From IMG/VR virus record IMGVR_UViG_3300025006_000320: 64,000 nt of DNA. One strand, 5' to 3'. The notes beneath the pieces were generated by a model, which saw nothing but the letters and a program-made list of their open reading frames with translations, was not told the origin of the DNA and did no database searches. Shown here in pieces: positions 1,247 to 17,452 of the stretch. Each line of letters opens with the position of its first letter. Position 1 is the stretch's first letter. The translations under genes and the position numbers were made by a program. The stretch is from a virus.

Positions 1247-1254
1247 AGTTCTCC

Positions 1255-1494: not shown

Positions 1495-1498
1495 TGGT

Positions 1499-1894: not shown

Positions 1895-2109
1895 CAAGCC
1901 CCCCTTTGCTTGCGTATAAGCTCCAGGTCAGCCTGGCAACTGGCGCAGGTCTGGCAGCCGGGAACGGCAGCGCGCCGCGGCTCGGGAATTGGTTCGTCGC
2001 ATTCTTCACAACGCTCAGCTGATACGGCGTTGCGGTTCAGGCGGTGAGCGGAAAGGGCGGCGTTACGCTGAAGCTCTTCAATCTCTGCTGCTGTGTCGAT
2101 GATGTCCAT
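1894..2109 (-). CDS. TraR/DksA C4 zinc-finger protein
   Basis: DIIDTA (DxxDxA) and CEEC...CQTCASC; GGAG SD 8 nt before the ATG at 2109. Confidence 0.9.
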   Translation of the reverse strand: MDIIDTAAEIEELQRNAALSAHRLNRNAVSAERCEECDEPIPEPRRAAVPGCQTCASCQADLELIRKQRGA

Positions 2110-2111
2110 GG

Positions 2112-2204
2112 TCAATGCTCCCGGAACTGTCGGTTAATTCGGTTGAAGGTGAACGCCAGCAATAAAAAAGGAGCCTTAAGCTCCAGGGTGATTTGCGTTT
2201 TCAT
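2112..2204 (-). CDS. 30-aa small protein MKTQITLELKAPFLLLAFTFNRINRQFREH
   Basis: Fills the gap between neighbours; ATGA overlap with the upstream gene. Confidence 0.45.
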   Translation of the reverse strand: MKTQITLELKAPFLLLAFTFNRINRQFREH

Positions 2205-2521
2205 AGTGGGTTTCTTTTGGGTTTGCTTTTCGCAGCTCCAGCAAAAAACAGAGCGTAGACGAGAGCGGAGGCCGCTAATGCCGTATGGTCTGTGACGATG
2301 AGGGCATAAATTGTCATCACGGATAGAGGAATGCTTAGCCACAAATATTTCATTTCCTCAAGCACGAACTCATGGGTGAGGGCTCCGCAGAAAACCCCAA
2401 TCCACGCCAAAACAGAAATAACCAGGTACGAGTAATAGGCAAACTGCTGCGCCTGCTCGTTACCGAAAAGAAGACATCCAATAATGGCAAGGCTAATTGC
2501 CGTTGATAATATTTTGCTCAT
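2201..2521 (-). CDS. Membrane protein, about 4 hydrophobic segments
   Basis: 106 aa, strongly hydrophobic, ATGA overlaps. Confidence 0.7.
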   Translation of the reverse strand: MSKILSTAISLAIIGCLLFGNEQAQQFAYYSYLVISVLAWIGVFCGALTHEFVLEEMKYLWLSIPLSVMTIYALIVTDHTALAASALVYALFFAGAAKSKPKRNPL

Positions 2522-2709
2522 GCTGCACCGCCTTCATTCTTCTCGGCTTCGACCGCCATCTGCTCAAGCCGTCGCGATAACTCGGCGGCCAGCGTCTGGA
2601 ATTCTTCTTCGGTAGCCACCGGGATCGGCACAAAGCGAATCCCGATGTGCGCGAGGTGGTTGGCTATTTCGAGGCTTTTCCTCAAATCAACGGGTGAGGC
2701 TCTGTTCAT
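2518..2709 (-). CDS. DUF1382-like protein
   Basis: ASPVDLR.SLEIA..LA.IGIRFVPIPV.T.EEF..L pattern. Confidence 0.7.
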   Translation of the reverse strand: MNRASPVDLRKSLEIANHLAHIGIRFVPIPVATEEEFQTLAAELSRRLEQMAVEAEKNEGGAA

Positions 2710-3572
2710 GCGACTTTCTCCCCGGGTAATGGTTTCAGACCGTCATTCAACGTGCGCTCAAGGTTGGACAATATTCCTCGCAACCTCTTAATCTCTTCAT
2801 CCTCGGTGAGTCGGCGCGCTGCTTCCCATAGCGTCCTTGTAAGAACATACATAGGGACATTCGGGTCGAGGCCAAGCGCTTTCGCCAGATCTTGCTGAGC
2901 GTCGGTTAACCTTTCCTCCGATTCCTCCCGGCGCTTACGTCGGCGTTGCAACTCCTCTTCACTTTCTTGGCGCAGGTTCTTCAGCCTTTCATCGTTATCC
3001 CTAATATGCTGCTCAAGGCGCTCCTTAGACCGATGTGCTCGACAAACAAGATCGGCGATTTCATTGCCATGTCGCTTCATTAGTTTTTGGTCGCTGAGGT
3101 AGGTATTGATTACGCGGCTTTTTATTTGGGTTCTTTCTGCCTGCCGGGTCATGCCATCCATAAGCAGCTTCATCCAGGCATCGCGAGGAAGGGTATCAAT
3201 CTGGCGCATTGTCGGCCCCTTGAGGGTATGCCATCCAGTTTCCTTCCGGATCATCAAGCCGCAACCATCTGGGATGTCGCTTTTCTTGAGCATGCCTTCA
3301 GGAACAGCAAAAACAACGCCACCTGCGTAGTTGAAGTATTTGGTGTATTTGCCTGCTGTAACGTCAGCCCGGAAATCACTAACGCTAACTTTGACCTCAT
3401 AGACGACAGGGCAGAACTTGCTGTAGCTGTGAGCAATAGAGTAGACATCGGGTCGACACGTACCGGCGGGCCCTAGCTGCATGTCCTCCCAGCAGATGCG
3501 CGCTGTGTTCTGGCGCAAATGCTCTGCAAGGTCATGAGCAAGCTCGTTATGACCCCATTTTTTTGTTGTCAT
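2706..3572 (-). CDS. MmcB-like PD-(D/E)xK nuclease with C-terminal coiled coil
   Basis: RPDV...YEVKVSVSDFRAD...KY..Y...VVFAVP motifs. Confidence 0.65.
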   Translation of the reverse strand: MTTKKWGHNELAHDLAEHLRQNTARICWEDMQLGPAGTCRPDVYSIAHSYSKFCPVVYEVKVSVSDFRADVTAGKYTKYFNYAGGVVFAVPEGMLKKSDIPDGCGLMIRKETGWHTLKGPTMRQIDTLPRDAWMKLLMDGMTRQAERTQIKSRVINTYLSDQKLMKRHGNEIADLVCRAHRSKERLEQHIRDNDERLKNLRQESEEELQRRRKRREESEERLTDAQQDLAKALGLDPNVPMYVLTRTLWEAARRLTEDEEIKRLRGILSNLERTLNDGLKPLPGEKVA

Positions 3573-3787
3573 TGTTCGGCTCCAAACCGCCCGTTAAGGC
3601 GGCCAGTTTTGACGACGAACTCCAGGAGGCTAACTCCCAGAGCTTCAATTTTCTTGTGATGTTTGTTGATGATGGGAGGCACCGTTTCGTTCCAGTTAGG
3701 CTTTGGCTTCTTGCGCATGGCCTGCTGGATTTCCTCGGTGCAGCGGCGGCAGGCTGCGCGAATGGCGTTTTCATTTGCTGGCGTCAT
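3569..3787 (-). CDS. Hypothetical protein
   Basis: 72 aa, ATGA overlaps on both sides. Confidence 0.7.
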   Translation of the reverse strand: MTPANENAIRAACRRCTEEIQQAMRKKPKPNWNETVPPIINKHHKKIEALGVSLLEFVVKTGRLNGRFGAEQ

Positions 3788-4335
3788 GCGGCCTCCCGGC
3801 GGGCGAGAAGTTTCACCCCGAAAGCCATCAGCTCGTCCCGGTCCATAGTTGCGAAGTGGCAGTGTGTACGCGGATACGGTCGCCAGATGATGAGCATCGA
3901 CCCTTTGTTGTTGCCGCTTACCGGCTTACCGGTGACCGGGTTAATAAATGCCAGCCGCCCGGCGGTGATGAGGCGAACCTCGCTAGCTGTCTGGATAGCC
4001 TCTTTGAACCAGCTAACCGAAGTGTCTGCCGGTACCAGCATTACCGTGCCGATCTGATTGGAGCTCTCGGCGGCTGCCTTCTTAACAAACGGTGTAATGT
4101 CGCTGTATGGTGGGTTCAGCCAAACGTAGCCAGGAATGCTCAGGTAATCAGCCCATGGCGTTTCCAGAGTGTTCTGCTCGGCGGTGATGAACTTTCGGCA
4201 CAGCGCGTTATGCGGCGCCGCGGCGGCATCCAGTTGAAAGCAAAACTCAGCATCAAGGGAGGCGAAAAGGGCGGGTGGAGTGCGCCATAGGTCACGCTGA
4301 TCCGCTGGGGTGTTGCTGCCGGTGTAATCGGTCAT
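3784..4335 (-). CDS. dam: Phage DNA N6-adenine methyltransferase
   Basis: DLWRTP, F.LDAAA and WLNPPYS motifs. Confidence 0.9.
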   Translation of the reverse strand: MTDYTGSNTPADQRDLWRTPPALFASLDAEFCFQLDAAAAPHNALCRKFITAEQNTLETPWADYLSIPGYVWLNPPYSDITPFVKKAAAESSNQIGTVMLVPADTSVSWFKEAIQTASEVRLITAGRLAFINPVTGKPVSGNNKGSMLIIWRPYPRTHCHFATMDRDELMAFGVKLLARREAA

Positions 4336-4499
4336 ACATCCTCCCGCTCCGGATCGTTAACATCCCAGCCATTACGCTCAATATTTGTTTTCAGCCGCTT
4401 ATCTCCGACCTCTTCAATGCTGCGGCCGGTAATCTCCGCGACTTCAGCGTTTGAGTGTCGCCACAGCAGCGCAAGCTCTTCGAGTGACCACGCTTTCAT
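4332..4499 (-). CDS. 55-aa hypothetical protein MKAWSLEELALLW... (not in track)
   Basis: Open frame with ATGA overlaps to both neighbours. Confidence 0.7.
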   Translation of the reverse strand: MKAWSLEELALLWRHSNAEVAEITGRSIEEVGDKRLKTNIERNGWDVNDPEREDV

Positions 4500-4924
4500 A
4501 GCACTGACTCCATTTCGTCGATGTAGAGGCCCTGAGCAATCAGGCGTCGACGGCGGGCGGCACGTTCAATGCACTCCTGCCGTCTGCCTTCCTGCGATTG
4601 TTCAATGGCGCGCCGGGTGAACAGCCGCGATTTGCCCTGCGGCGTTACAACCTTCGGCTTCGTTACGAGGTCGAAAGTGCGGTCACAGATACCGTCTTCG
4701 TTGAGCCATTTTTCCGACTCAACGATCTGCGCTATCTGTCCGGTGCCGCGGGTGATGCCGTTGGCCACCCTGTTAAACTCGATGAGCGTTACGCCAAACT
4801 TCTCGGCGATTTCGCTGCCCGTTACCGGGCGGCCGCGCGTCTGAATCATCCAGATAACGCGTTCACGGAGGCCGGAAAATTGCCCGGTTCGCCCGGGCCT
4901 GCGGTAAAAGGGTGTGCGTTTCAT
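4496..4924 (-). CDS. Winged-HTH-like protein
   Basis: RERVIWMI....RPVTGSEIAEKFGV. Confidence 0.6.
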   Translation of the reverse strand: MKRTPFYRRPGRTGQFSGLRERVIWMIQTRGRPVTGSEIAEKFGVTLIEFNRVANGITRGTGQIAQIVESEKWLNEDGICDRTFDLVTKPKVVTPQGKSRLFTRRAIEQSQEGRRQECIERAARRRRLIAQGLYIDEMESVL

Positions 4925-5544
4925 TCGATCTCCAGGATGCGGTGCTTCGTGTCCGCAACAAGTTCGAGGAAGTCTTTTCGGCGCGCCCGAAGCCGGGCTA
5001 TTTCTGATTCACATTCGGCAGCTGTAAGGCGATAGACGATGAGCTGTTTACCGTCCGGGAAGTCTGAGCAGTAGCTGATGAAGTCCACCCAATCCCTGCC
5101 AGAGCAATCAAGGTGACCGATCAGTTGCCATCTGTATGCAGGGTCGAAGGAGCCGCGGGTGAGGGTGGAGTAGTGAGTGGCGGCAATGACCGACTTAATC
5201 TCAACGAGCCCGTCCAGTCCAACGAGTCCGTCGGGGCTGTCACCGTACGTTTCGTGATCAAAGAATCCGCCGTTATCCACATCGACGAAGTTCATCTCTT
5301 CGTACAGCATGCGGGCAATAGGCTCCTGTTCGTGCCCGCGCTCCATGTGCTCATTTGAGAAGCCAAACTCAGACTTGCACCCCTTAATCTGCTCCAGAGC
5401 CAACTGTATAGCGTAACGCTTGGCCGGTTCGCCAAACGCTTTCCCATCGTTAGCCATGATCAGGCCGAAGTTTGAAGCAGTGGCCTTACCCAGGCGAAGA
5501 GCATCCCACTCTTCACCGTTTTGCTCGACGTCGTGCCAGATCAT
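4921..5544 (-). CDS. YqaJ/lambda-exonuclease family protein
   Basis: Q.GEEW..LRLG..TAS, GHEQEP.AR, SPDGLV, EIK motifs. Confidence 0.9.
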   Translation of the reverse strand: MIWHDVEQNGEEWDALRLGKATASNFGLIMANDGKAFGEPAKRYAIQLALEQIKGCKSEFGFSNEHMERGHEQEPIARMLYEEMNFVDVDNGGFFDHETYGDSPDGLVGLDGLVEIKSVIAATHYSTLTRGSFDPAYRWQLIGHLDCSGRDWVDFISYCSDFPDGKQLIVYRLTAAECESEIARLRARRKDFLELVADTKHRILEIE

Positions 5545-6044
5545 GATGAACACTCCTGCTCAAGTTGGCGGCGATATTCTGGAGAAATGTCCATTCTCGC
5601 CAGCACTGCATCAAGGTTGCCATCGCGCTTGAAGGCGGCCTTAGCGTTATTCCATGCCTGCGTTTTTTCCGGTGAAAGCACCGGCTTTGTAACGCGTGCC
5701 GGGCTTAAGCGGAGGCCTTCAACCGATTCCTTTCCGAACCGGACATTTTTATCGACGTAAACAGTGACCTTTACGCCAACCCAATCTTCAAGGAATGGCG
5801 AGCCGGTAATGCTTTTCAGCATCTTGCTGTTCGTGGCATTCAGAATCATCGGCTTGAGCTTTTCGCCAGGGCGCAGCTCGCGCTCTTCAAAATAAGCAGT
5901 GTTAAAAACGTCTTTGGATTTTTTTGTTTTGTCGTTTTCTAACGTTGCCCGGGCGATCGTCAGCACCGTTGGCTCAACGATATCGGCGCTGCTCAGGTAA
6001 GGGGAGTCAAAAGCTTTTCGGTAGTGAGTTTTAGTTTCAGACAT
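5541..6044 (-). CDS. Hypothetical protein in the bet/erf position; candidate ssDNA-binding or annealing protein
   Basis: Directly upstream of the exonuclease; AAGGA SD 8 nt before the ATG at 6044. Confidence 0.5.
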   Translation of the reverse strand: MSETKTHYRKAFDSPYLSSADIVEPTVLTIARATLENDKTKKSKDVFNTAYFEERELRPGEKLKPMILNATNSKMLKSITGSPFLEDWVGVKVTVYVDKNVRFGKESVEGLRLSPARVTKPVLSPEKTQAWNNAKAAFKRDGNLDAVLARMDISPEYRRQLEQECSS

Positions 6045-6055
6045 TTCATGCATCC

Positions 6056-6340
6056 TTAAAACGGGCAGCCGGTACGGTGTTCCCAGTCGTATTCCGCCTG
6101 GGCGTAAGCAACTGCTGAAATGAAATCGTTGTAGGCCTCGCCAGCTTTATCGCTGCGAAGTCCTTCGTATGGGCTGGAGTCAATCGGGATCGTGAAGTGG
6201 AAGAGGCCTGACGGCTCTTTCGGCATCATGTCGATGATTTTCTGCGCCCGGTCGTCGATCCACTTCTCTTTCTCGTCGGTGATCTGCTGCTCAGCCCAGC
6301 GCCGATCTTCGATGCGGTCGTAAGTGAGGTATGCGTTCAT
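6056..6340 (-). CDS. Hypothetical protein (94 aa)
   Basis: GAGG SD before the ATG at 6340. Confidence 0.75.
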   Translation of the reverse strand: MNAYLTYDRIEDRRWAEQQITDEKEKWIDDRAQKIIDMMPKEPSGLFHFTIPIDSSPYEGLRSDKAGEAYNDFISAVAYAQAEYDWEHRTGCPF

Positions 6341-6347
6341 GGTTGCC

Positions 6348-7316
6348 TCAATATTTGATGTGCGCGTCCTGCACTTTGCCGCCAGCAATCGCCAGCAGTG
6401 CTTTCTGCGCGAATTCTTCAGGGATGCCCTGATTAATTAGGTCGGCGATGACGCGACTATTGACAGTGCGGCGGTGCTCCTTGTCTGCGGCGCGGCGCGC
6501 TTCTTCTTCAGCTTTGCGCTGCTCTTCGGCTAGACGGGCGGCTTCTGCCTCTTCCAGGCGGCGGCGCTCGGCGGCAACGGCTTCTTCTTTTTCGCGGCGC
6601 GCACGCGCTTCCGCTTCCTGCTTCTCGCGTGCCGCACGCTGTTCCGCTTCAATGCGCTGGCGCTCCGCCAGTTCAGCGCGGGCTTTCTCTTCGGCTTCAC
6701 GGCGCGCTGCGGCTTCAATCTCCGCTTTGTGCTTCGCTTCGGCATCGCGGCGGGCTTGTTCTGCCGCTTCACGCTTAATACGCTCTTCATGCTCACGTTG
6801 AGCTTGTTCCGCCATGCGGCGCTGCTCTTCGCGGTCACGGTCGAAATCCTTATTCATCAGCAGAGCCATTTCGTGGTCCGCTTCAAACTTGTCCGCCAGC
6901 TCCTGATCGAACTTGATGTTCATTTCCAGAGCTTCGGCGTGCAGCGCGTTCATGGCTTCTTCAGCCTTGATACGTTCCTGCTCGGCTTCCCATTCGGTGA
7001 GTGGGCGGCGGGTCGCATCGCGCAGCTCGTCACAGGCATCAACAAATCGCTTAATTTCGGCCTCAGCCGGACGCACAGCCTCTTTAAGGCGCTTCAGGTA
7101 CTCACGGCCTGGCTTTTCGATTGCCGTCTTGCTGCGGGATACCTGCGCCGCCAGAGAGGCTACTCGGTCACGCCCCTTCTTCGTGGACAGGTCCGGCACT
7201 TCGTTTACTGCCTGGCGGATTTGCTCGAGGTAAGCATCAAGGCCGCCCGCTACGTAAAGTACTGGCGCCTGCTCCGGCTTGATTTCGATGACAGTTAAGT
7301 CCGTTACTTCGCTCAT
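6348..7316 (-). CDS. Long coiled-coil (A/E/R-rich) phage protein
   Basis: 322 aa, AGGAG SD, EAR-rich helical C-terminal half. Confidence 0.8.
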   Translation of the reverse strand: MSEVTDLTVIEIKPEQAPVLYVAGGLDAYLEQIRQAVNEVPDLSTKKGRDRVASLAAQVSRSKTAIEKPGREYLKRLKEAVRPAEAEIKRFVDACDELRDATRRPLTEWEAEQERIKAEEAMNALHAEALEMNIKFDQELADKFEADHEMALLMNKDFDRDREEQRRMAEQAQREHEERIKREAAEQARRDAEAKHKAEIEAAARREAEEKARAELAERQRIEAEQRAAREKQEAEARARREKEEAVAAERRRLEEAEAARLAEEQRKAEEEARRAADKEHRRTVNSRVIADLINQGIPEEFAQKALLAIAGGKVQDAHIKY

Positions 7317-7386
7317 GGTTTCTCCTGAAATTTGGATGTGCAGATCCCGCCCGCTTTTAGCCAGGCCGATCGGTTGAATAGGGTGG

Positions 7387-7833
7387 TTACTTAGAAAGTT
7401 TTGAGTTCCAGGACTCTATGGCAGAAATTGGTGAGTCGAAGGTAACAGGGGCAATCCATCCGCAGCACTTCAATTGGAACTGATTGAGGATGTATGGCTC
7501 AGGACCAATCCTGCAGCCTCGATCCCATTCGAACGCTTTAATTACGGGCTGTCGTTTGCAAAATGGACACTCTGTTGTGTCAGGGAGATTTTCGAAAGAA
7601 ATGTCCGGTAACGATCCATCATCCTCAGCCCATTGAAGTTCGCCTGGCACAACAACCGAATATCCGTCCCAACGGTCAAATTCAGGAGAAAGAACATCTT
7701 CGTAACCAGCGCCACGAAGGCGAAATTTAGCTCGGGCAATAACGACAAGCCCTTTAACTTTTCGGCTACCCATTCGCCACATATAAACACCGGCGGAATC
7801 AGGCTTGCGTTCAGAGTATTTAACCCATTGCAT
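7387..7833 (-). CDS. Protein with C-terminal Lar-like zinc domain
   Basis: CPFCK...KCCGW...AIESWN pattern of the restriction-alleviation Lar family; GGAGG SD. Confidence 0.5.
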   Translation of the reverse strand: MQWVKYSERKPDSAGVYMWRMGSRKVKGLVVIARAKFRLRGAGYEDVLSPEFDRWDGYSVVVPGELQWAEDDGSLPDISFENLPDTTECPFCKRQPVIKAFEWDRGCRIGPEPYILNQFQLKCCGWIAPVTFDSPISAIESWNSKLSK

Positions 7834-7990
7834 GCTCACCTCCGCGCTGATTCGTCTTTGCCCGATGCCACGGATAACCTATGGCAACCTTCATTTCGTC
7901 GTAGGCTGCCATCCACATGGCGCCATCACCGATAAACAGGGCGATGGCTGCTTTACTCTGCGCGGCGCGCAGCAGGTGATGATTGATCAT
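7820..7990 (-). CDS. kil: Lambda-type Kil cell-division inhibitor (56 aa, not in track)
   Basis: MINHHLLRAAQSKAAIALFIGDGAMW resembles lambda Kil (..AIQTKFTIATFIGDEKMF). Confidence 0.75.
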   Translation of the reverse strand: MINHHLLRAAQSKAAIALFIGDGAMWMAAYDEMKVAIGYPWHRAKTNQRGGEHAMG

Positions 7991-8145
7991 GCCTTCACCT
8001 CAACCTGTTCAAGGAGGCCAGCCAGCTTCATGTGCCAGCGGTTCATCGTCAGCTTCTCGCGCGGATTCGATACCGACGTCAGCTGCCACTCGTTATCGTT
8101 GAGCTTTTTGGCGGTGTACTGCTTGCCGTTGTGGGTGACTGTCAT
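7987..8145 (-). CDS. 52-aa hypothetical protein MTVTHNGKQYTAKK... (not in track)
   Basis: GGAGG SD, ATGA overlap with kil. Confidence 0.7.
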   Translation of the reverse strand: MTVTHNGKQYTAKKLNDNEWQLTSVSNPREKLTMNRWHMKLAGLLEQVEVKA

Positions 8146-8399
8146 GATGCCTCCCGGGCGTGGAGCATTGCATCAGCCAGCAGGTAAGCTCTTGATGCTA
8201 TCCCATCAACAGTTTCGAAGTAGGCCCCTTCAGGCTCTCCATCAGCACCTCGCGCAGCAACTATCAGCGCTTTTGCAGCGAAATAATCGCGCAATGTCAT
8301 GCCGCCAGAGCTGACTTCGAAACCATGTAAGTGACCAACTTCGTCGCGCTCCACGATAGAATCGCACGGGAAAGCGCGCCCTCCAGTTTTATTGCTCAT
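8142..8399 (-). CDS. Conserved phage hypothetical protein (GG.AFP...GMTLRDYFAAKA...ADAML)
   Basis: GAGGA SD before the ATG at 8399; widespread motif. Confidence 0.75.
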   Translation of the reverse strand: MSNKTGGRAFPCDSIVERDEVGHLHGFEVSSGGMTLRDYFAAKALIVAARGADGEPEGAYFETVDGIASRAYLLADAMLHAREAS

Positions 8400-8468
8400 A
8401 AATCCTCTTGGCCTTATCGCGGCGAACGGAACGGTTAATACAAGACTTCTGCGCTTGTGCGGCAAAAC

Positions 8469-8494
8469 AAAAAAAGTGGCGGTGGATGGCCGCC
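8469..8494 (-). terminator. Intrinsic terminator in the left operon
   Basis: GGCGG-CCATCCA-CCGCC then a T-tract on the minus strand. Confidence 0.6.
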
Positions 8495-8536
8495 GGTTGT
8501 CATAACTAACCGCACTCATCGAGAACGGTGAGGTAT

Positions 8537-8562
8537 GAAAAAAGCCGCTGGTTAGGCGGCTC
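8537..8562 (-). terminator. Intrinsic terminator in the left operon
   Basis: AGCCGC-CTAACCA-GCGGCT then TTTTT on the minus strand. Confidence 0.7.
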
Positions 8563-8836
8563 TGAGTTTGTTGACGTAATTCATGCATACTGTAGGGCTG
8601 CATGTTCGCCATGTGGTTTTATGCTGCATCCGCTTGCTTGGCGGGTAATAAGCAACAGTCCCTTGCGGTGTACGAAAAATGAGAGTGTTTTCTCCCTCTT
8701 CGAACTCAACTCCATTACGTTGAAAGAAAGCCTTCATCCCTTCATGTGCTGAGTTACGCGCCATCCTGCGCCGCTCTTTAAGTTCTGGCTTCATGTCTCG
8801 CCAAAACTCCCCCATCGTATAATCGTCGTCTGCCAT
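8552..8836 (-). CDS. Hypothetical protein (94 aa)
   Basis: GAGGG SD before the ATG at 8836. Confidence 0.7.
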   Translation of the reverse strand: MADDDYTMGEFWRDMKPELKERRRMARNSAHEGMKAFFQRNGVEFEEGENTLIFRTPQGTVAYYPPSKRMQHKTTWRTCSPTVCMNYVNKLRAA

Positions 8837-8881
8837 AAAACCCTCTGTCGTTACCCGCTGATGCGGGAGAAATGCTTTGGC

Positions 8882-8985
8882 GATTGGATGGCCGGCGCTG
8901 ATCTCCGGCATGTAGATTCGGTTCTGCCGATAAATCCCACACTACTTCCGCTTCGTTGCGCATCAGCCTGCGCATTCATCCAATC
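8882..8985 (-). ncRNA. Multibranched structured RNA, C4/CI/IsrK-like candidate
   Basis: 9-bp closing stem GATTGGATG/CATCCAATC with three internal arms; see finding. Confidence 0.5.
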
Positions 8986-9067
8986 CCAAAACATTCCAGT
9001 TATTGCCGGGGTATTTATCCGCGCCCGGCGCGCGCTTTCCCGCTATTCCCCAACAGCAAGAAATCGC

Positions 9068-9409
9068 TTACTCTTTAATCTCCCCAACAGTAGAAAGGAT
9101 ATATTCATGCAAACCATGCGGACCGTGTGCCCTGACTGCGGAAGTGAGATGTTCAACCAGCCCGATGATTTTGACTTTGAGACAAATTTCACCGGCGTCA
9201 GTTGTGCTGACTGTGGTCGAGAAATCACTAAGGACGATGTTGTCAATCAGGCCACGGACACGGTCAAAAAACAGCTCGACGACATGCTCAGGAATTCCCT
9301 GAAAGGAACTGGCTGGAAGTTCGACTAATTTCAAAAGCTCCCCGAACTGAGTAAGAACCTCACTGGCGTCTACGTTAAGCAGTAGTGGCGCCGTTTTTTT
9401 ATCTGCCAT
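9068..9409 (-). CDS. First gene of the pL operon, hypothetical (113 aa)
   Basis: GAGGGG SD before the ATG at 9409; open across the antisense gene. Confidence 0.55.
   Translation of the reverse strand: MADKKTAPLLLNVDASEVLTQFGELLKLVELPASSFQGIPEHVVELFFDRVRGLIDNIVLSDFSTTVSTTDAGEICLKVKIIGLVEHLTSAVRAHGPHGLHEYILSTVGEIKE
9107..9328 (+). CDS. Small zinc-binding protein (CPDC...CADC), ECs_2282-like
   Basis: AAGGA SD, ATG at 9107, two CxxC pairs. Confidence 0.7.
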   Translation: MQTMRTVCPDCGSEMFNQPDDFDFETNFTGVSCADCGREITKDDVVNQATDTVKKQLDDMLRNSLKGTGWKFD

Positions 9410-9469
9410 ACACACCCCTCTGTTTGTTTACCGTCAGCCCCTCGTAAAGAGCTGCTGGTAAATCGCTTT

Positions 9470-9539
9470 GCCATAATTGCCGCTCTCCCTGAGCCCGCCT
9501 ATGGTCCGACGCATGGTTTACTGTCGCGCCGTTCGACTG
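9470..9539 (-). ncRNA. putL: put-like antiterminator RNA (putL)
   Basis: GUCGAACGGCGCGACAGUAAACCAUGCGUCGG...GGCGGGCUCAGGGAGAGCGGCAAU closely matches HK022 putL as recalled, with compensatory changes; lies just downstream of pL. Confidence 0.8.
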
Positions 9540-9604
9540 ACCGAATCTCCACTTCGCCGCTGGCTAACTTCGCTCAGCTGTCGATGTTTCGTTTCGATGA
9601 GTTG

Positions 9605-9665
9605 ATTATTAACTAATGGTTATTTTCAGTCAATAACCATTGGTTAATTATTTTACCGTTGGTTA
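9605..9665 (-). promoter_or_regulatory. pL (TTGACT-17-AATAAT) with OL operators
   Basis: TAAC-N5-GTTA at 9610-9622 and 9634-9646; TTAC-N5-GTTA at 9653-9665. Confidence 0.8.
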
Positions 9666-9756
9666 TTAAGGTTATGATTTATTGGTTAATTTAGTTCTGT
9701 TATGGATTTGTGCAGTACGTGCTATGCTGCAAAAAACATCAAAAAGGAGTGGTGAG

Positions 9757-9954
9757 ATGGACTTGGATGAAGAAAGAGTGAACATGATGGTTCACGCCAT
9801 GGGGCGGGCGGTCATGGAATTGTCACTGGCTGATTTACCCATGACCCAGCAAAACATCATCGACAAGCTGAAGCAGTACCGGAAGGAAACAGGAAACGTG
9901 ATCGGCAAGGGAGTTAACAGGGATGCTGCGGAGTTGGTGAGGAAGGGGCAATAA
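9757..9954 (+). CDS. Accessory hypothetical protein (65 aa) between OL and cI
   Basis: AAGGAG upstream; candidate extended -10 TGCTATGCT at 9720-9728. Confidence 0.65.
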   Translation: MDLDEERVNMMVHAMGRAVMELSLADLPMTQQNIIDKLKQYRKETGNVIGKGVNRDAAELVRKGQ

Positions 9955-10093
9955 AAAAGCCCGCACGGGCGGGCAGGTAGTGTTGCGATAGTTATTGTTA
10001 TCAGCTTCAGGCTGGATAGTTATCGGCAGAATGGGGGATAGCTTTATGGGTGGGCAATAAAAACCCGGCGCAGTGGCCGGGTTGGGCTATAAA

Positions 10094-10798
10094 TCAGAAT
10101 TTTGAAATGTCGATGTTGTAGATCGCCATCCATGCCTCTGCGGGATAGGAGTTAAGCGGTACTGATTGGTAATGCGGGGTAAGAATTTCAACAGATAAGC
10201 TGTGATAACTGCAGTAGTTTGCCAGCATCTGCCAGCTATATTTTCCAGGAATAACGCTCTTTACATGCGCAATCGTGGCATGCCTAAACCCTTCACCTTT
10301 ACTATGAACGTATTTGTTATGCTGCATGACGTGGTTACCGAAAGAGCCGCGTACAGACTTAAACTGGCCGTCTTTCTTTTCCAGCATCATCTGAGCGCGT
10401 TCTGCCGCTTCCGCCTGATCTGCCAGTTGGCGAAGAGCATCAGCGTATGTTTGTGGCACCATCTTATACCCGCCTGTTTTACGGATGGATGGAAGCACCT
10501 CGGAGGTAACCCACTTTTTAAAATGTTTTGCCTCTACTTTCTGCGATCCCATGACTGCATTATATAGCCCAGATTCATTAATAAGCGTCTGATTTGTATA
10601 GTTTCGTCCATTTTGCAGGGTTTGCTTTCTCTTTTCATCATCATCCAGTCTTTCTGTCATGTTACTGGTTTCAGCATACCCAAGAATATCTGCAACGTCC
10701 TTAGCAACAAACCACACTTCTGAATCATCGTCAGTCATAGTCCTGACGGCATTGCCGTTAAAATCAAATTCATTTAGAGCTACTGGATGACTCATCAT
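10094..10798 (-). CDS. BRO-N domain antirepressor-type protein
   Basis: F.F.G..VR...WFVAKDVA..LGY, INESGLY..V, FKKWVTSEVLPSIRKTG.Y; AGGTG SD. Confidence 0.85.
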   Translation of the reverse strand: MMSHPVALNEFDFNGNAVRTMTDDDSEVWFVAKDVADILGYAETSNMTERLDDDEKRKQTLQNGRNYTNQTLINESGLYNAVMGSQKVEAKHFKKWVTSEVLPSIRKTGGYKMVPQTYADALRQLADQAEAAERAQMMLEKKDGQFKSVRGSFGNHVMQHNKYVHSKGEGFRHATIAHVKSVIPGKYSWQMLANYCSYHSLSVEILTPHYQSVPLNSYPAEAWMAIYNIDISKF

Positions 10799-11048
10799 TT
10801 CACCTAATAAAATTGGCATCCAATGCTTTACAGGGGAAAACGCTTGAGGTAATCTCCCCAATCGAGATCTCAAGAAAACATTCTAGCCGATGTTTTTTCA
10901 GCCCCTGGTAGCGTCAACTATCAGGGGCTTTCCGTTGTTGGCGAGCAGAAAACGATCACACAACAGCGGGATCCTACCCAGGCTAAACAGAAACTTCAAC
11001 AAAATGATCAGCTTATAGCTGATTTTTTTCACACCTGTAATTCCATCC

Positions 11049-11077
11049 AATAAAAAAGGCCGCATCTCTGCGACCCC
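11049..11077 (-). terminator. Terminator downstream of cI
   Basis: GGTCGC-AGAGAT-GCGGCC then TTTTTT on the minus strand. Confidence 0.7.
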
Positions 11078-11112
11078 TCAAGCAACCATTCAAACCAGCC
11101 GCATCTTCGTCT

Positions 11113-11889
11113 TTACAGCAACACCGAGTACCAGAATATGCGACCGATTATCTCAACATCATCAATGTCAGCTTCTTCATCCGGATATGCGTCGCCGTTG
11201 TAGCTGCGAATGATTAGCTTGCCGCCCGGCTTCCGGTATAGCTGCTTAATGCGCTTGAGCTGCCCGCTACCGCCGTCTGCCTGACCAATGGCATACAGCT
11301 TACCGTCAACTATGCGCTTGTTGTTCGTGTCTACGGCTACCGTAGTGCCATCGGGAATGATCGGCTCCATGCTGTCACCTGTGGCCGGGAAGCAGAGAAC
11401 TCCAGAACCGTCGGTGTTTGCCCCTACTCGGCGTAGTGTTGACTTGGAGAACCTGAGCTTAAAACCATTGTGATCTTCGCTGTGTACGCGTCCATCGCCA
11501 CACGCAAATTCAATATCCTTAAGAAACGGCACTTCAACCTCGTCAGCAGGAAGCGGTGTGTTTTTGTCCCAAGCGTCAACAGTTCCCCACTCGGATTCCG
11601 GCGGGATAGAAGATTCCCTGTGCAGTTCAGGCTCAGGATCATTCCTTCCGTATTCCAGCCACTCAGGGCGAACCCCAAGCCAGCGGCTAAGTGCAAGGAT
11701 ATTGGTTTGGTCTGGTATTGCTGATGCGTTAAGCCACTTCCAGATCCCGGGCTCAGATACAGCAATCCCCTGGGACTTCATAGCTTCCCTGATCCTGCCA
11801 GCCTGCCCACGCCCACCCACGCCAGCATCAAGCAATGCAGCGCGAAGTCTCTTCGAAAACTCTTCTTTTAAATCGTCTTTTTTAACCAT
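11113..11889 (-). CDS. cI: CI repressor, HTH plus S24 autopeptidase
   Basis: N-terminal HTH, ACG cleavage-type site, GDSMEP Ser and LKR Lys; divergent from cro. Confidence 0.92.
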   Translation of the reverse strand: MVKKDDLKEEFSKRLRAALLDAGVGGRGQAGRIREAMKSQGIAVSEPGIWKWLNASAIPDQTNILALSRWLGVRPEWLEYGRNDPEPELHRESSIPPESEWGTVDAWDKNTPLPADEVEVPFLKDIEFACGDGRVHSEDHNGFKLRFSKSTLRRVGANTDGSGVLCFPATGDSMEPIIPDGTTVAVDTNNKRIVDGKLYAIGQADGGSGQLKRIKQLYRKPGGKLIIRSYNGDAYPDEEADIDDVEIIGRIFWYSVLL

Positions 11890-11952
11890 GTGTTAATTAT
11901 CAATTAGAGTTGACATAACTGTCAGTTAAGATATAACCTTAACTCGTAGTTA
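11883..11952. promoter_or_regulatory. OR3/OR2/OR1 with pR (TTGACA-16-TATAAC) and pRM (CTGACA-18-GATAAT)
   Basis: TAAC-N5-GTTA at 11883-11895, 11916-11928 and 11940-11952, the same consensus as OL. Confidence 0.85.
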
Positions 11953-11973
11953 ATATAGTTAACGGGAAACACT

Positions 11974-12219
11974 ATGAACCCAATGCAATTTGCAATCGAA
12001 GCTGTAGGCGGACAAACCGCAGCGGCACGCCTATGTGGTCTGTCGAATGTTGCTATTCACAAGTGGGTAAAGAACGCGGCATTGCCTCGCACCGAGTACA
12101 CAGAGAAAACCAACTATTCACAGCTTTTGGCTGACGCATCAAAAGGGCAGTTTACGGCGGAGTGGCTACGTCAAGCCGCAAACCCCGATCGAACTAAACA
12201 TGGATCACATGCCGCCTGA
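11974..12219 (+). CDS. cro: Cro-like repressor
   Basis: AIEAVGGQTAAARLCGLS..AIHKW HTH, divergent from cI. Confidence 0.85.
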   Translation: MNPMQFAIEAVGGQTAAARLCGLSNVAIHKWVKNAALPRTEYTEKTNYSQLLADASKGQFTAEWLRQAANPDRTKHGSHAA

Positions 12220-12246
12220 GGGCGGCCCTAACTAAAAATCACAGGA

Positions 12247-12279
12247 AGTATCGCAAATGGAAACCTTAACGACACGCAA
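12247..12279 (-). promoter_or_regulatory. Candidate CII-dependent pRE
   Basis: TTGC-N6-TTAA, then 13 nt, then GATACT; same geometry as lambda pRE. Confidence 0.45.
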
Positions 12280-12478
12280 CAAAGCGGAGGCACGACGAAT
12301 TGAGAGTTGGGTGCAGCGTCAAATCGCAGATCTGGGTACCGCCCGGATAGCCGAAGTAGCTGGCATCAACAAATCCACAGTCAGCCGGTGGCGGGAGAAC
12401 CTGGTACCGAACATGTCGCTGCTGCTGGCCATCCTGATTTCTAACCGGGATGGAGTGAAGGGAGATTTTGAAGCATGA
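12257..12478 (+). CDS. cII: CII-family activator (short, 73 aa)
   Basis: RN.A.ARRIES....IA..G...IAE.AGI.KS.VSRW, downstream of cro. Confidence 0.8.
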   Translation: METLTTRNKAEARRIESWVQRQIADLGTARIAEVAGINKSTVSRWRENLVPNMSLLLAILISNRDGVKGDFEA

Positions 12479-12560
12479 ACGCAGAAAGGGCGAAAGCCGA
12501 GGTGCTGTAACACCAACGGCTTTCAGGTGGAATTAACTGGATCAATTCACAGGAGCAATT

Positions 12561-13415
12561 ATGGCAAACACTGCCGAAGTAATCAATTTCCCTGTGCCTG
12601 ACGTGGCACCTAAGGAGCCGCGCGTGGCAGATCTTGATGATGGCTATACGCGCATCGCCAATGAACTTCTGGAGGCTGTCATGCTGGCTGGATTGTCTCA
12701 GCATCAGCTGCTGGTCTTCATGGCAGTAATGCGCAAAACATACGGTTTCAACAAAAAGGCAGACTGGGTAAGCAATGATCAGTTATCTGCCCTGACCGGC
12801 ATCCTCCCACACAAATGCTCTGCGGCTAAAAGTGCGTTAGTTAAGCGTGGGGTATTTACCCAAATCGGGCGAACTGTGGGGATTAACAAAGCGGTCAGCG
12901 AATGGGTGAAATTACCCAAATCAGGTAACGAAAATAAAGTTTACCTGAAAGAGGTAAATTTACCAGAATCAGGTAAGAAAAGTTTACCCGAATCAGGTAA
13001 CGACACTTACCCAAATCAGGTAAACACAAAAGACAAACATACAAAAGACAATAAAGACAATATTAATAAACCCCCTAAATCCCCCAAACCGGCTTCGTTC
13101 GATCCGGCTGGTGTTGAGCTTCCTGAATGGCTGTCAGTTTCAGTCTGGAAGTCATGGGTCGATTATCGTCGCGACCTGAAGAAACCGATCAAGTCTCAGC
13201 AGACGGTTACCCAGGCCATCAACCTGCTCGAGCGTTGCAAGTGCAGCGGATATCAGCCTGAAGAAATCATCAACCAGAGCATTGCGAACGGCTGGCAGGG
13301 ATTGTTTGAGCCGAAAGGCATCAAACAGCCAGCCCGCAATCAGACTCGCGTATCCGAGAACTTCGCTGGCAAGGACTATGGACAGACTGAAATTCCGTCA
13401 TGGGCGAGGGACTGA
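12561..13415 (+). CDS. Lambda O-type replication initiator
   Basis: ADLDDGYTRIANELLEA...RKTYGFNKK.DW; contains the iterons. Confidence 0.9.
   Translation: MANTAEVINFPVPDVAPKEPRVADLDDGYTRIANELLEAVMLAGLSQHQLLVFMAVMRKTYGFNKKADWVSNDQLSALTGILPHKCSAAKSALVKRGVFTQIGRTVGINKAVSEWVKLPKSGNENKVYLKEVNLPESGKKSLPESGNDTYPNQVNTKDKHTKDNKDNINKPPKSPKPASFDPAGVELPEWLSVSVWKSWVDYRRDLKKPIKSQQTVTQAINLLERCKCSGYQPEEIINQSIANGWQGLFEPKGIKQPARNQTRVSENFAGKDYGQTEIPSWARD
12912..13070. repeat. Replication origin: five iterons plus an A-rich tract
   Basis: TTACC-N7-GGTAA at 12912, 12941, 12960, 12984 and 13007, followed by A-rich DNA. Confidence 0.9.
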
Positions 13416-13417
13416 GT

Positions 13418-14272
13418 ATGGAACTGCTCGAAAAAATCGACGCTATCGAAAAAATGCTGGAAGTTCTCGGCAGGCCGCCAGAGCAACTCCCTAACTGCGA
13501 GATCGTCTGTGAAACGGTGCTTTGCGAGAAACACGGCGAATACGAACAGCGTAAACGCGTGCTTACCAGCAGTCTGATCAAGCTGCCGTCACCGCCGACT
13601 CGTTGTCCGGGCTGCCTGCGCGATGAGCTGACCTTCCTGTATGACGAGAAAAAGCGTTGGGAAGACCGCACGCGCCAGCAGAACGTCGATCGTCTGCTGC
13701 GCCAGCTCGAAATCCCTGAGCGCTTTGTAACGTGCACGCTGGAAAACTACCAGCCGGTAGGCAAAGAGTCAGAACGCGCGCTGCGGGTTTGCCAGGCGTA
13801 TGCCGCGAAGTGGCCGGAGCGCCTGAAGCAGGGTGGCGGTCTGGTGATGTGCGGAAAGCCGGGTACCGGTAAAAACCATCTCGCCCTGGCGATCGCCCGC
13901 TACGTCATCGAGAACCACCAGAGCCCGGTAATTTTCACCACCGCGCTGAAGATTGCCCGTGAGTTCAAATCAACGTGGTCGAAAACAGCGACGCGCTGCG
14001 AGAACGATGTGATTTCGCACTTCACCACTCCGGACCTGTTGATCATCGATGAGGTAGGCGTCCAGTTCGGCAGCGAAGCCGAGAAGCTGATCATGTTCGA
14101 AATCATCAACACCCGGTACGAGCGGATGAAGCCGACCATCCTGATCAGCAACCAGACCAAAGAAGAACTGGCGGCGTTCGTGAGTGAGCGCGTTATTGAC
14201 CGTATGAGCGACGGTGGCGGGTGCACGCTGTCATTCACCTGGGATTCTTACCGTTCAAAGGGGGCAGCGTGA
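13418..14272 (+). CDS. DnaC/IstB-like helicase loader
   Basis: C..HG...CP.C zinc motif, GKPGTGKNHLA Walker A, LLIIDEVG Walker B, SERV.DRM. Confidence 0.9.
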   Translation: MELLEKIDAIEKMLEVLGRPPEQLPNCEIVCETVLCEKHGEYEQRKRVLTSSLIKLPSPPTRCPGCLRDELTFLYDEKKRWEDRTRQQNVDRLLRQLEIPERFVTCTLENYQPVGKESERALRVCQAYAAKWPERLKQGGGLVMCGKPGTGKNHLALAIARYVIENHQSPVIFTTALKIAREFKSTWSKTATRCENDVISHFTTPDLLIIDEVGVQFGSEAEKLIMFEIINTRYERMKPTILISNQTKEELAAFVSERVIDRMSDGGGCTLSFTWDSYRSKGAA

Positions 14273-14463
14273 AAGCATGCAGCGACGACTATGTCGTTAT
14301 CAACCAGTATTCGAAAGGGGATGCAGCCTGGATAGAGCGCGTTGATACCGATGAAAAGCGAAAAGCACTTTACAAATCGAGTTGGGAAATAGCCGTAATC
14401 TCGCTCGCAATCGTTCGTGAATATGGGATCCGGAGGGTAGGCAATGACCATAACAATCCGTGA
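14269..14463 (+). CDS. Hypothetical protein (64 aa, GTG start)
   Basis: GTGA overlap with the loader gene. Confidence 0.6.
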   Translation: MKACSDDYVVINQYSKGDAAWIERVDTDEKRKALYKSSWEIAVISLAIVREYGIRRVGNDHNNP

Positions 14464-14788
14464 GCAGGTGCTGGCAGCCCTGCGCAACAACCCAGGGCTG
14501 AACAGCGTCAAGCTGGCCGAGCTTATCGGCATGGACACCAAAAAGATATCGGGAACGGTGAGCACGCTGCTGGCCGACGGCCTGATTAGCTGCGAAGGAA
14601 AATACGGCCAGCGCCTTTACAGCCTGACCAGTTACGGCATGCGCTTCGCCCCTGACACGATACCGGGCATGAAGCAGGGCAAGTCGAAGCTAATTCAGCG
14701 GACGGACACAAACGTGATCTGCCAGGAGTGCCGCAACAGCGCGGCGATGAGAAGGGTATTGATGGTTTGGGAGAGGGCAGGGGTATGA
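14444..14788 (+). CDS. Winged-HTH protein
   Basis: IREQVLAAL..NPGL....LAELIG.....ISG.VS.L...G. Confidence 0.75.
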   Translation: MTITIREQVLAALRNNPGLNSVKLAELIGMDTKKISGTVSTLLADGLISCEGKYGQRLYSLTSYGMRFAPDTIPGMKQGKSKLIQRTDTNVICQECRNSAAMRRVLMVWERAGV

Positions 14789-15063
14789 AAATTTTAAAAC
14801 TGAGTCAGCAGGCAACAGTTTCTCGTCCGGTCGATTCGATTATCGGTTGGGAAGAGAAAACAATCTACGAGCCAGTTTTTGTTGTGGCTGAGCATATTGA
14901 GTCGTTTTTGTTTGCTGGAGTAAGCCACATCAAAATGACCTCGGGCGAAAAGATAGTTGTACGAGAAACACCTGAAGAAATTCTCGCGCTGCTTGGCGTC
15001 GGTGTTCAAACGGATAGCCTGAAAACATGGGGTGAAATTGCGCAGAAGGAGGCCGCCCAGTGA
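14785..15063 (+). CDS. Small FlbD-like hypothetical protein
   Basis: V.AEHIES...S.I.M.SG..IVVRETPEEI motif. Confidence 0.55.
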   Translation: MKILKLSQQATVSRPVDSIIGWEEKTIYEPVFVVAEHIESFLFAGVSHIKMTSGEKIVVRETPEEILALLGVGVQTDSLKTWGEIAQKEAAQ

Positions 15064-15620
15064 GCAACATCGACAAACGCGCATTACGTGAAGCGGCTGA
15101 ACGTGCAGGACAAAATGACTGGGAGTACGTCTACACCAGCGACCTCAGCGCCCCAGGGCGGGGATATATCACAGTAGGCGGAGCAGAGGCTATCTACTGT
15201 CTGAATAAAGCCGCAGGGGGAGTGAAACAGTCGGAAAACGTATTGAGATATATCGCTGCAGCTAGCCCGGAAACAATGCTGGCGCTGCTGAATGAGATTG
15301 CTGAACTTGAGCAACGACATTGCGGAACAGCATTGCTTGAGCGAGAAGAAATGCACACCAAAACTCTGGGTAGGATGTTGGATGAGCTGGAAGAGTCCGA
15401 GCGGCTACGCTTTAAGTTCCAGGAAGCTAACTGCGAATTGTGCCAGAAGCTGGAAGCCGCAGAGAAGCGGATTGCTGAGCTGGAGCGTAAAGAACAGCAC
15501 AGTGAACGCCAGTCAGTAATTGATGCGCTGGCTGGTTCTGGTGAGGAATGGAGTGATATCGAAGAATACATGCAGAAGTGGGACGCGGAACGCGCCTCCG
15601 CAGCCGGTAAAGGGGAGTAA
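15060..15620 (+). CDS. Ead/Ea22-like protein
   Basis: MSNIDKRALREAAE and YIAAASP...LALL.E..ELE. Confidence 0.8.
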   Translation: MSNIDKRALREAAERAGQNDWEYVYTSDLSAPGRGYITVGGAEAIYCLNKAAGGVKQSENVLRYIAAASPETMLALLNEIAELEQRHCGTALLEREEMHTKTLGRMLDELEESERLRFKFQEANCELCQKLEAAEKRIAELERKEQHSERQSVIDALAGSGEEWSDIEEYMQKWDAERASAAGKGE

Positions 15621-15622
15621 GC

Positions 15623-15799
15623 ATGAAATACGAAATCCCGGAATCAGAAGATATTGAATGGCAGCAGGATATGCTCCGTGAAATAGACAGCGCCCTTGAT
15701 GTCTTGCGTGATGAACATGAGCACGCAGAGGTAGTGGAGGAAATCATCAATGATATCACCGCGAGAATAGCATCACTCCGCGCGTACTCTGGATACTGA
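15623..15799 (+). CDS. 58-aa acidic hypothetical protein MKYEIPESEDIEW... (not in track)
   Basis: GGAG SD, open frame filling the gap. Confidence 0.7.
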   Translation: MKYEIPESEDIEWQQDMLREIDSALDVLRDEHEHAEVVEEIINDITARIASLRAYSGY

Positions 15800-15809
15800 G
15801 GACTAACCT

Positions 15810-16508
15810 ATGAGCACTATTACCAGAGAATTCACCAAAGAGCAGTTACAGCAAATTATCGAAACTGACCACGTTCAATGCGGTGAGGCTTCGGCGCTGG
15901 CGCGTATCGCGCTGGCATCGCTCGAAGCGGAGCCTGTGGCTTACTCTCTGATATTCAGAAACATGGACGGCGTGCTGAATGATTATGTGAATGCAAATAC
16001 CACATTTTCAACGATAGAAAAGGCACAGGCATACGGGAGAGGAGGTAACTATGTCAGACAGAATGACGGCTCCATGAAATGGGTTTCTGACCCATCGCTA
16101 GACCCGGTTGTTATTCCGCTATTCACCGCCCCGCCAGCGCCGGTATCTGTGCCTGATGAAGACTTGCTTCACATGGCAGCATCTGCGATAGAAGACCTGC
16201 TCAGTAACAAAGACAGGTCAGGTGCCGGGGTATGGGCTGACGTGCCTGCCAGGTTACGCCGCGCCGCCATGCTTCAGGGTGCCGCTGGCAACTCTCCGGT
16301 GATTCCGGATGGTTGGAAACTGGTGCCGGTTGAGCCGACAGAAGACATGATCGTCAATGGGTTTGAGTCAGAGCCAGATGAGAGCTTTAGCGATGAGAAA
16401 GAGTGGGCAACATACGACGCCATGAGCGGATGCCAGCAGGCTGCGCACCGGGCGAAGTTGTGCTGGGCGGCGATGATAGCGGCGTCACCTGCGTACAAAA
16501 AAAGTTAA
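15810..16508 (+). CDS. Eaa/DUF551-associated mosaic phage protein
   Basis: LARIALASLEAEPVA and GNSPVIPDGWKLVPVEPTEDM segments. Confidence 0.7.
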   Translation: MSTITREFTKEQLQQIIETDHVQCGEASALARIALASLEAEPVAYSLIFRNMDGVLNDYVNANTTFSTIEKAQAYGRGGNYVRQNDGSMKWVSDPSLDPVVIPLFTAPPAPVSVPDEDLLHMAASAIEDLLSNKDRSGAGVWADVPARLRRAAMLQGAAGNSPVIPDGWKLVPVEPTEDMIVNGFESEPDESFSDEKEWATYDAMSGCQQAAHRAKLCWAAMIAASPAYKKS

Positions 16509-16526
16509 TCGTCAAGGCTAAAAAAT

Positions 16527-16559
16527 AGGTATGCGGATTACATCACCGCATGCCTTTTT
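16527..16559 (+). terminator. Terminator in the early right operon
   Basis: AGGTATGCGG-N9-CCGCATGCCT then TTTT. Confidence 0.7.
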
Positions 16560-16601
16560 GCGTTGTATATTAGGGTCTCAATACTCATAGGGGATTAAAT
16601 T

Positions 16602-16841
16602 ATGTTCGTTGAAGTTACTGTGACTCACGTTCTAAACAAGGGTGTTGGTTTCTTTCCTCAGAGCCCGGCATATAAGCTCTATGTCAACGGTGACCATATC
16701 GTCAAACTCGCCAAACAAGAAGACGAGGCATGGACTGTTATGACCTTGTCAGATGGTGTTGTATACGCTATTTCAGAAACTCCATATGCAGTAGCTAATA
16801 AACTAAATGGCGGAGAAGACCGGTCAAAAGTGAGTCTTTGA
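16602..16841 (+). CDS. Accessory 79-aa protein, FlbD-like pattern
   Basis: AT-rich flanks, GGGGA SD, YVN.DHIV...T..TLSDG....ISETP. Confidence 0.6.
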   Translation: MFVEVTVTHVLNKGVGFFPQSPAYKLYVNGDHIVKLAKQEDEAWTVMTLSDGVVYAISETPYAVANKLNGGEDRSKVSL

Positions 16842-16927
16842 TTTCTTAAAATCAATCAGCCATAATCATGTCATCGGAGCCTGAACAACTCCGGTGACTT
16901 CTGCGCATTTAAGGGGACTTAAATGCG
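16838..16927 (+). promoter_or_regulatory. Internal promoter and two-hairpin leader of the nin operon
   Basis: TTGATT-17-CATAAT; 10-bp hairpins at 16870-16898 and 16904-16927. Confidence 0.65.
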
Positions 16928-17018
16928 ACCACAATCTGAACTCCTCACCTTGTCACAGATGCTTAACGGCACCTGCGATTTTCTGCATTCTGCGTTACCT
17001 CTCGGAGGTGGCGCATGA
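16923..17018 (+). CDS. YlcH-like 31-aa leader peptide coupled to ninB
   Basis: MRPQSELLTLSQMLNGTCDFLHSALPLGGGA; ATGA overlap; same position as ylcH in DLP12. Confidence 0.55.
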   Translation: MRPQSELLTLSQMLNGTCDFLHSALPLGGGA

Positions 17019-17452
17019 GTATCAAATTCTACCTGCGTGATGAGCAGGTTCGCCGCAACCTCATCGACTACATCAACAAGCAGCCTGTAAACGCAGATTT
17101 CCCGCTCGTGGTGAGTTTTGCCGACCCTAAGCGCACTCTTCCTCAGAATTCACTGTTCCACGCGCTTTGCGGCGATCTGGCAAAGCATCGCATTCAATGG
17201 GCTGGCTCTGCGTGGTCGCTTCCGTCGTGGAAATCAATTTTGGTTTCCGGTCACTCCATTGCCACTGGAGGGCAGGGGAAGGTTATTGCCGGACTTGAGG
17301 GAGAATTGGTGGCCATTCGCGAAAGCACCTCATCGATGGGGATCAAACGGATGAACAGCCTGATTGAGTACACCCAGGCTTTCGCCGTCAGCCAGAACAT
17401 CCAACTTCGCGATGTCCGTTATCGTGGCGATTACTTTGGGAGGCTTGCATGA
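17015..17452 (+). CDS. ninB: NinB/YbcN-family recombination protein
   Basis: KRTLPQNSLFHA, WK..LVSGH...T, GLEGELV.IRESTSSM...RMNSLIEY. Confidence 0.85.
   Translation: MSIKFYLRDEQVRRNLIDYINKQPVNADFPLVVSFADPKRTLPQNSLFHALCGDLAKHRIQWAGSAWSLPSWKSILVSGHSIATGGQGKVIAGLEGELVAIRESTSSMGIKRMNSLIEYTQAFAVSQNIQLRDVRYRGDYFGRLA

Follow-up and report, generated by a model that had tools for sequence, protein, structure and literature searches.

How is the early-left operon of a temperate phage transcribed past intrinsic terminators when the phage has no N gene? The question is raised by a 64,000-nucleotide stretch of viral DNA (hereafter the window), in which a preliminary description, made from the letters alone, had placed a put-like antiterminator RNA and a boxA behind the predicted pL promoter. 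The window consists of a circular phage genome of 46,313 bp, written out beyond one full turn: its last 17,687 bases repeat the first with zero mismatches. Positions 46314-64000 thus duplicate 1-17687 exactly, and each early-region feature is present twice. Since the window wraps a circular genome, the put element at 9445-9600 reappears at 55758-55913 (+46,313).

The phage has a lambdoid control region (Table 1) and encodes an integrase gene. Its virion module includes sheath, baseplate hub and wedge genes, in agreement with the myovirus setting proposed earlier, and is about 80% identical to that of the Klebsiella phages RothC, RothD and Chronis. The contractile tail has no bearing on early transcription. 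The early-left region is a mosaic, whose pieces are about 90-93% identical to phi80, HK639, CobraSix and the Enterobacter phages ENT1 and BHUENT6.

Table 1. Features of the early region and its control elements (positions counted from the first letter of the window).
Feature	Position	Strand	Description	Basis
CI-like repressor	11889-11113		accompanied by Cro and CII-like genes; lambdoid control region	
Q-like gene	18751-19440		lambdoid control region	
pL promoter and operators	9605-9667	-	position as pL annotated in HK639 and phi80	promoter scan
5' leader	9540-9598	-	about 59 nt; own fold domain closed by AUCGAA/UUCGGU	alignment and fold
put antiterminator RNA core	9469-9538	-		HK639 identity, covariance model, critical residues, covariation
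Helix A	9538-9534 with 9526-9522	-		
Stem I, cryo-EM-based pairs	9531-9527 with 9511-9507	-		
Lower stem II	9504-9500 with 9475-9471	-		
Upper stem II	9494-9491 with 9485-9482	-		
Third hairpin	9427-9462	-	8 bp, 2-nt internal loop, 6 bp, UACG tetraloop at 9446-9443	folds
First pL gene	9068-9409	-	113 aa; HK639_45 homolog, at the place of lambda N, not N-like	
Structured cassette	8862-9003	-	closing stem of about 21 bp (GGAAUGUUUUGG... with ...CCAAAGCAUUUC), three inner arms	fold
Tandem intrinsic terminators	8469-8563	-	after the second pL gene	sequence, folds
Strong terminator-like site	2164-2184	-	far downstream, at the end of the leftward operon	scan, fold

Identity and fold of the element

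A 241-base query was compared by blastn with 50,697 phage records. Over 200 nt it shares 97% identity with the pL leader of HK639, whose GenBank record annotates the matching stretch as 'putative pL' and 'putL-like antiterminator RNA', and only three differences separate the two phages across the 82-nt put core. The identity to putL of HK022, HK75 and O276 is 78%. In the alignment to HK022 putL the critical residues are kept, and the HK022 sequence given in the preliminary description agrees with the real record. HK022 putL and putR go back to King et al. 1996 and Banik-Maiti et al. 1997, and HK639 was reportedly characterised by King et al. 2011 (J Bacteriol 193:5784), whose GenBank annotation is the one quoted above. 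Hwang et al. 2022 cite King et al. (PMC9378689).

Rfam holds no put family, and a search of it at gathering thresholds returned isrJ only. A permissive Rfam search of 9300-9750 gave weak matches far below gathering scores, most of them from microRNA models that hit the operator palindrome. Scanning IMG/VR and the phage records with a pattern yielded 33 distinct put cores; the scan of viral contigs also gave many GC-rich chance matches, and only hits with the AAACCAUGCGUCGG core were retained. For the put core pattern, 0 matches were expected (100 shuffles). The set used below comprises 32 sequences, namely the 33 cores minus L047 and L057, in which stem II is replaced or truncated, plus the window's own. 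A covariance model of these 32 variants scores the site at 91.9 bits (E 2e-21), partly by construction because the window's own sequence is one of the model rows, and the next-best site in the genome at 12.6 bits. HK022 putR, which was left out of model building and serves as an outside control, is recovered at 41 bits. Searches of whole records with the model gave two put copies in HK022, one in HK639 and one in CobraSix. In the present genome no putR was found anywhere with the model, filters off, and there is a single put as in HK639.

The put-like RNA of the preliminary description is thus borne out by the identities to HK639 and HK022 and by the covariance model. The element very probably is an HK639-class put (polymerase-utilization) RNA that antiterminates in cis and replaces the nutL-plus-N device of phi80-like phages. 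As an identification, put is already known: the element is HK639 putL in a different phage chassis. In RNA-library contigs from four runs, the leader, put and first gene of relatives are covered, in a form that cannot show starts, ends or read-through, and the contig cover ends at 9599-9615, where the relative's sequence diverges.

Positions in the window were assigned HK022 numbers following the cryo-EM structure (PMC9378689). Residues A9, U28, G35, G45 and A64, the GCGGG block (43-47) and the CGGCAA interface strand (59-64) are all identical to HK022. Mutation of any of these inactivates HK022 putL; the put-minus mutation destroys the GCGGG block, and the interface with polymerase is centred on the CGGCAA strand (PMC9378689). 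Both stems drawn in the preliminary description are recovered on the minus strand: stem I pairs CGGCGCG (9531-9525) with UGCGUCG (9513-9507), and stem II pairs CCAUA with UAUGG below a top formed by GCUC, the loop AGGGA and GAGC. Helix A (3-7 with 15-19), a duplex that is essential and part of a triplex according to the cryo-EM work (PMC9378689), forms four of its five pairs. The A5-U17 pair is flipped to U-A, which is compensatory and corresponds to the change 'GAC to GUC with GUC to GAC' pointed out earlier. The A3-U19 pair is an A-A mismatch, as it is in 19 of the 32 variants (window included). In upper stem II U48-A58 is changed to C-G and in lower stem II all pairs are replaced relative to HK022; these changes are also compensatory, as had been claimed.

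The same picture emerges from the natural variants. Over the 32 sequences, the pairs of the cryo-EM structure, pseudoknot included, form in 93.5% of cells, compared with 21-51% when the partners are slid, and ten pairs are changed on both sides. The covariation score was reached in none of 500 shuffles. It should be noted that the invariance of stem I is partly by construction, being required by the search pattern. The plain thermodynamic (MFE) fold of the put segment is no stabler than that of shuffles (z -0.3), as expected for an RNA that folds with a pseudoknot and gains stability from the polymerase. Natural variation therefore strongly supports the cryo-EM fold by covariation, the pseudoknotted helix A included.

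Promoter, leader and genes of the pL operon

The promoter scan gives pL, on the minus strand, a -35 TTGACT at 9633-9628, a 17-nt spacer and a -10 AATAAT at 9610-9605. Operator palindromes of the TAACCAnnGGTTAA type lie across it at three places (9607-9622, 9634-9647 and 9655-9667), and pR, in the interval separating the repressor gene from cro, has three more of this type (11883-11952). The transcript from pL is predicted to start near 9598. With the first put helix at 9538, the put RNA lies about 60 nt past the predicted start, as first described.

The intervening 5' leader is identical to the phi80 pL leader over its first 46 nt, as aligned with phi80 and HK639. Relatives have a short hairpin with the same closing stem, in which an A-U pair is exchanged for G-C in a compensatory manner (CGAAAC/GUUUCG versus CGAGAC/GUCUCG). 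The same long leader occurs in about half of the distinct upstream contexts recovered, and also in HK639 and dozens of viral contigs; because it is this widespread among the contexts, it is a common feature of the HK639 class and not specific to this phage. The suggestion that an extra 5' leader together with a boxA marks a variant is therefore not upheld: the leader, the bulge-less stem II and the downstream hairpin are already found in the annotated, published HK639 element and in many viral contigs. Homology between this phage, HK639 and phi80 begins close to the pL transcript start (about 9599; compared with L001 and L129). The upstream operators and repressors differ, so that a sharp recombination boundary separates the immunity module from the leader. 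In HK022 putL, a -10-like AACCAU at +23 to +28 is proposed to cause a sigma-dependent pause (PMC9378689). In this phage, where the 59-nt 5' domain comes first, AACCAU would lie near +85.

The phage has no N gene. The 113-aa product of the first pL gene, to which no family could be assigned, is not Arg-rich and contains no arginine in its first 35 residues, tblastn with phi80 N gave no match in this phage, and neither PHROGs nor Pfam assigned an N-like family to any early-left ORF; these results agree with the earlier report that an Arg-rich, N-like ORF is missing. One Arg-rich ORF of 142 aa (4924-4496) was considered as N and rejected: its place is 4.5 kb downstream, on the far side of the terminators, and its only match, to an HTH, is weak. 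Inside the first pL gene, in antisense orientation, runs a 73-aa CxxC zinc-ribbon-like ORF (9107-9328, +), whose Pfam zinc-ribbon matches are all below threshold.

In the window the first pL gene is followed by the structured cassette, which folds at -56 kcal/mol (z -3.9) and in which ARAGORN found no tRNA. Its long duplex could be a target of RNase III. In CobraSix-type relatives the cassette stands directly 3' of put, with variable inner arms.

Intrinsic terminators are present downstream. Both members of the tandem pair are strong: the first (8563-8538) has an 8-bp stem and U6, the second (8494-8469) has the stem GGCGG/CCGCC and U7, and they fold at -11.6 and -9.0 kcal/mol, respectively. 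The second has a homolog among the terminators annotated in HK639, while the first takes the place of the other terminator annotated there. Together with the site at 2184-2164, they account for the three or more terminators counted previously, and the remaining candidates from the scan are weak and lie within genes. A mechanically called 156-aa ORF (8142-8612, -) includes both tandem terminators; since its PHROG match spans only residues 65-155, the ATG at 8399 is the probable start of the real gene.

The rightward operon also holds a strong intrinsic terminator, at 16529-16565 (+), with a 10-bp stem and U5, upstream of the nin/Q region; the HK639 class nevertheless has a single put. The Rfam isrJ match (66.8 bits, 19456-19529, +) begins 16 nt past the Q-like gene, and a strong terminator closes it. 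A pR' leader RNA comparable to lambda 6S would be encoded at this place, so that members of the 'isrJ sRNA' family may be late-leader transcripts of prophages.

The third hairpin, the boxA-like octamer and the stem II bulge

The third hairpin folds at about -19 kcal/mol and, having no U-tract, is not a terminator. Its tip, UU-UNCG-AG, is conserved, and the layout of 8 bp, internal loop and 6-7 bp recurs in other phages in three versions that differ in sequence (with GGCAUUUA or CGCUUUUG where the octamer discussed below stands); a fourth, in a different register, is also a hairpin. The versions were compared by single folds and a loop-anchored pair table; RNAalifold mis-aligned two sequences. 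Many put elements of the same class are without this hairpin, and put there runs straight into the structured cassette that the window has at 9003-8862, behind the first gene. Because these elements join the cassette directly, the hairpin and the gene at 9409-9068 together look like an insert.

The octamer GCTCTTTA / GCUCUUUA at 9452-9445, which the preliminary description had read as a boxA, consists of the last six bases of the 5' arm of this hairpin and the first two bases of its loop. One may wonder whether put is here combined with a functional boxA, NusB and NusE (S10) being recruited at GCUCUUUA and reinforcing or extending antitermination as in rrn or lambda nut. The octamer matches the rrn boxA core consensus at 8/8 positions, it lies on the transcript strand 17 nt past the last put pair (G 9471), and a given octamer would be expected within 150 nt about 0.002-0.008 times, as estimated from counts. 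Yet the same octamer is also found at four other places in the genome, and thus arises elsewhere in it. Moreover, boxA is bound as single-stranded RNA (PMC3177189, PMC2800207), whereas, with the whole leader folded as an ensemble, the unpaired probability along the octamer is 0, 0, 0, 0, 0.04, 0.36, 1 and 1, that is, its first five bases are paired at 0.96-1.0 and the sixth at 0.64. Nor are the letters conserved: relatives with the hairpin show GGCAUUUA, CGCUUUUG and GCUCCUGU at this place, and the final A of the octamer (9445) is a G in HK639, where the UGCG loop is still UNCG, and in three RNA-library relatives. A G at this last position fits the free N of a UNCG loop. For comparison, the annotated nutL boxA of phi80 is UGCUUUUUA. 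Neither boxB nor N is present, the whole hairpin is dispensed with in many elements of the class, and putRNA alone performs both anti-pausing and antitermination according to the abstract of Hwang et al. (PMC9378689). The boxA-like sequence noticed earlier is thus there, but the role ascribed to it does not follow, because relatives keep the shape of the hairpin and not its sequence; we consider a functional boxA very unlikely. The hairpin could instead belong to a three-part device typical of the HK639 class, made of the 5' hairpin domain, the bulge-less put core and the 3' UU-UNCG-AG hairpin, or it could transiently expose boxA. If true, the flanking hairpins would fold or insulate put far from the promoter, where an HK022-type sigma-dependent pause may be less available. 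This proposal, too, is at odds with the lack of the 3' hairpin in many otherwise identical put elements, and it seems unlikely to us.

A different doubt comes from stem II. Deletion of U68, an unpaired wedge in HK022 putL, abolishes antitermination and spares anti-pausing in vitro (PMC9378689). This wedge is missing in the window, where U68 (9473) pairs with A39 inside CCAUA/UAUGG, as in HK639, and stem II is thus fully paired at this position. The element might then be a put relative that, lacking the bulge, only suppresses pausing, or stabilises or insulates the mRNA 5' end, with no terminator read-through. However, the bulge-less form is unchanged in HK639 and in many independent viral contigs with differing operators and downstream genes, it is found in phages that have no N, with tandem terminators directly downstream, and it is called an antiterminator by the GenBank annotators of HK639, who are the authors of the 2011 paper. 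In addition, other natural put variants shift the bulge by one position or drop it, so that its exact place is not constant in the family. The paired stem II is therefore best treated as a class difference and not a defect, since HK639 has the paired form and variants move the bulge, and we regard a put RNA restricted to pausing or to the mRNA 5' end as very unlikely. The U68 bulge, important as it is in HK022, is not a constant of the put family.

Proposed antitermination and comparison with known phages

We therefore return to the reading of the element as a cis-acting put antiterminator, which by homology to HK022 putL would act as follows. Once the repressor is lost, pL would fire near 9598, and the first 59 nt of the transcript would fold into the 5' hairpin domain. 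The next 70 nt (9538-9469) would fold during synthesis into the V-shaped put, with its helix A, stem I and stem II. The put RNA would then remain on its own polymerase, holding on to both the zinc-binding domain of beta-prime and the flap tip of beta, and the polymerase would be held in a non-swivelled, pause-resistant state in which formation of terminator hairpins in the exit channel is hindered. The tandem terminators would be the first barriers for the put-modified polymerase, which would pass 8563-8469 and the later terminators with neither a phage protein nor a Nus factor. Read-through would then reach the recombination (exonuclease), methylase and integration genes. Both the binding to polymerase and the terminator read-through are what we infer for this RNA. 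Such a put would explain how early-left genes are expressed past terminators in an N-less temperate phage, and we propose to annotate the element as putL. The known put mechanism is unchanged by these findings.

The closest known system is HK639 (HM208537, feature 34187-34312). It shares with this phage the pL leader, the put core, the CCAUA/UAUGG stem II, the UNCG hairpin and the first gene, and it likewise has one put, no putR, no N and a common downstream terminator. The two differ in their operators and repressor, with homology starting at the transcript start, in the tetraloop (UGCG in HK639, UACG here) and in the virion module, the contractile tail of this phage being about 80% like that of Klebsiella phages RothC and Chronis. 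HK022 putL and putR (PDB 7XUE, PMC9378689) belong to the same family, with the same fold, critical residues and position behind pL, and need no N protein. HK022 putL begins about 8 nt past the transcript start, whereas here the 59-nt 5' hairpin domain precedes put; the lower stem II pairs are all changed here, the U68 bulge is missing and A5-U17 is flipped to U-A. HK022 also has a second copy, putR, and the Nun gene, and this phage has neither.

The comparison with phi80 is one of position. The two pL transcripts agree completely over their first 46 nt and the genes of the left operon are largely homologous (about 90%), but from 15 nt before boxA phi80 has nutL (boxA and boxB) and N, whereas this phage has put and an unrelated gene. 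Because the homology to phi80 ends 15 nt before the nutL boxA, the put module occupies precisely the site of nutL and N. The nutL/N of phi80 and put are thus positional analogs, the one a protein acting with Nus factors and the other, as known for put, an RNA acting alone.
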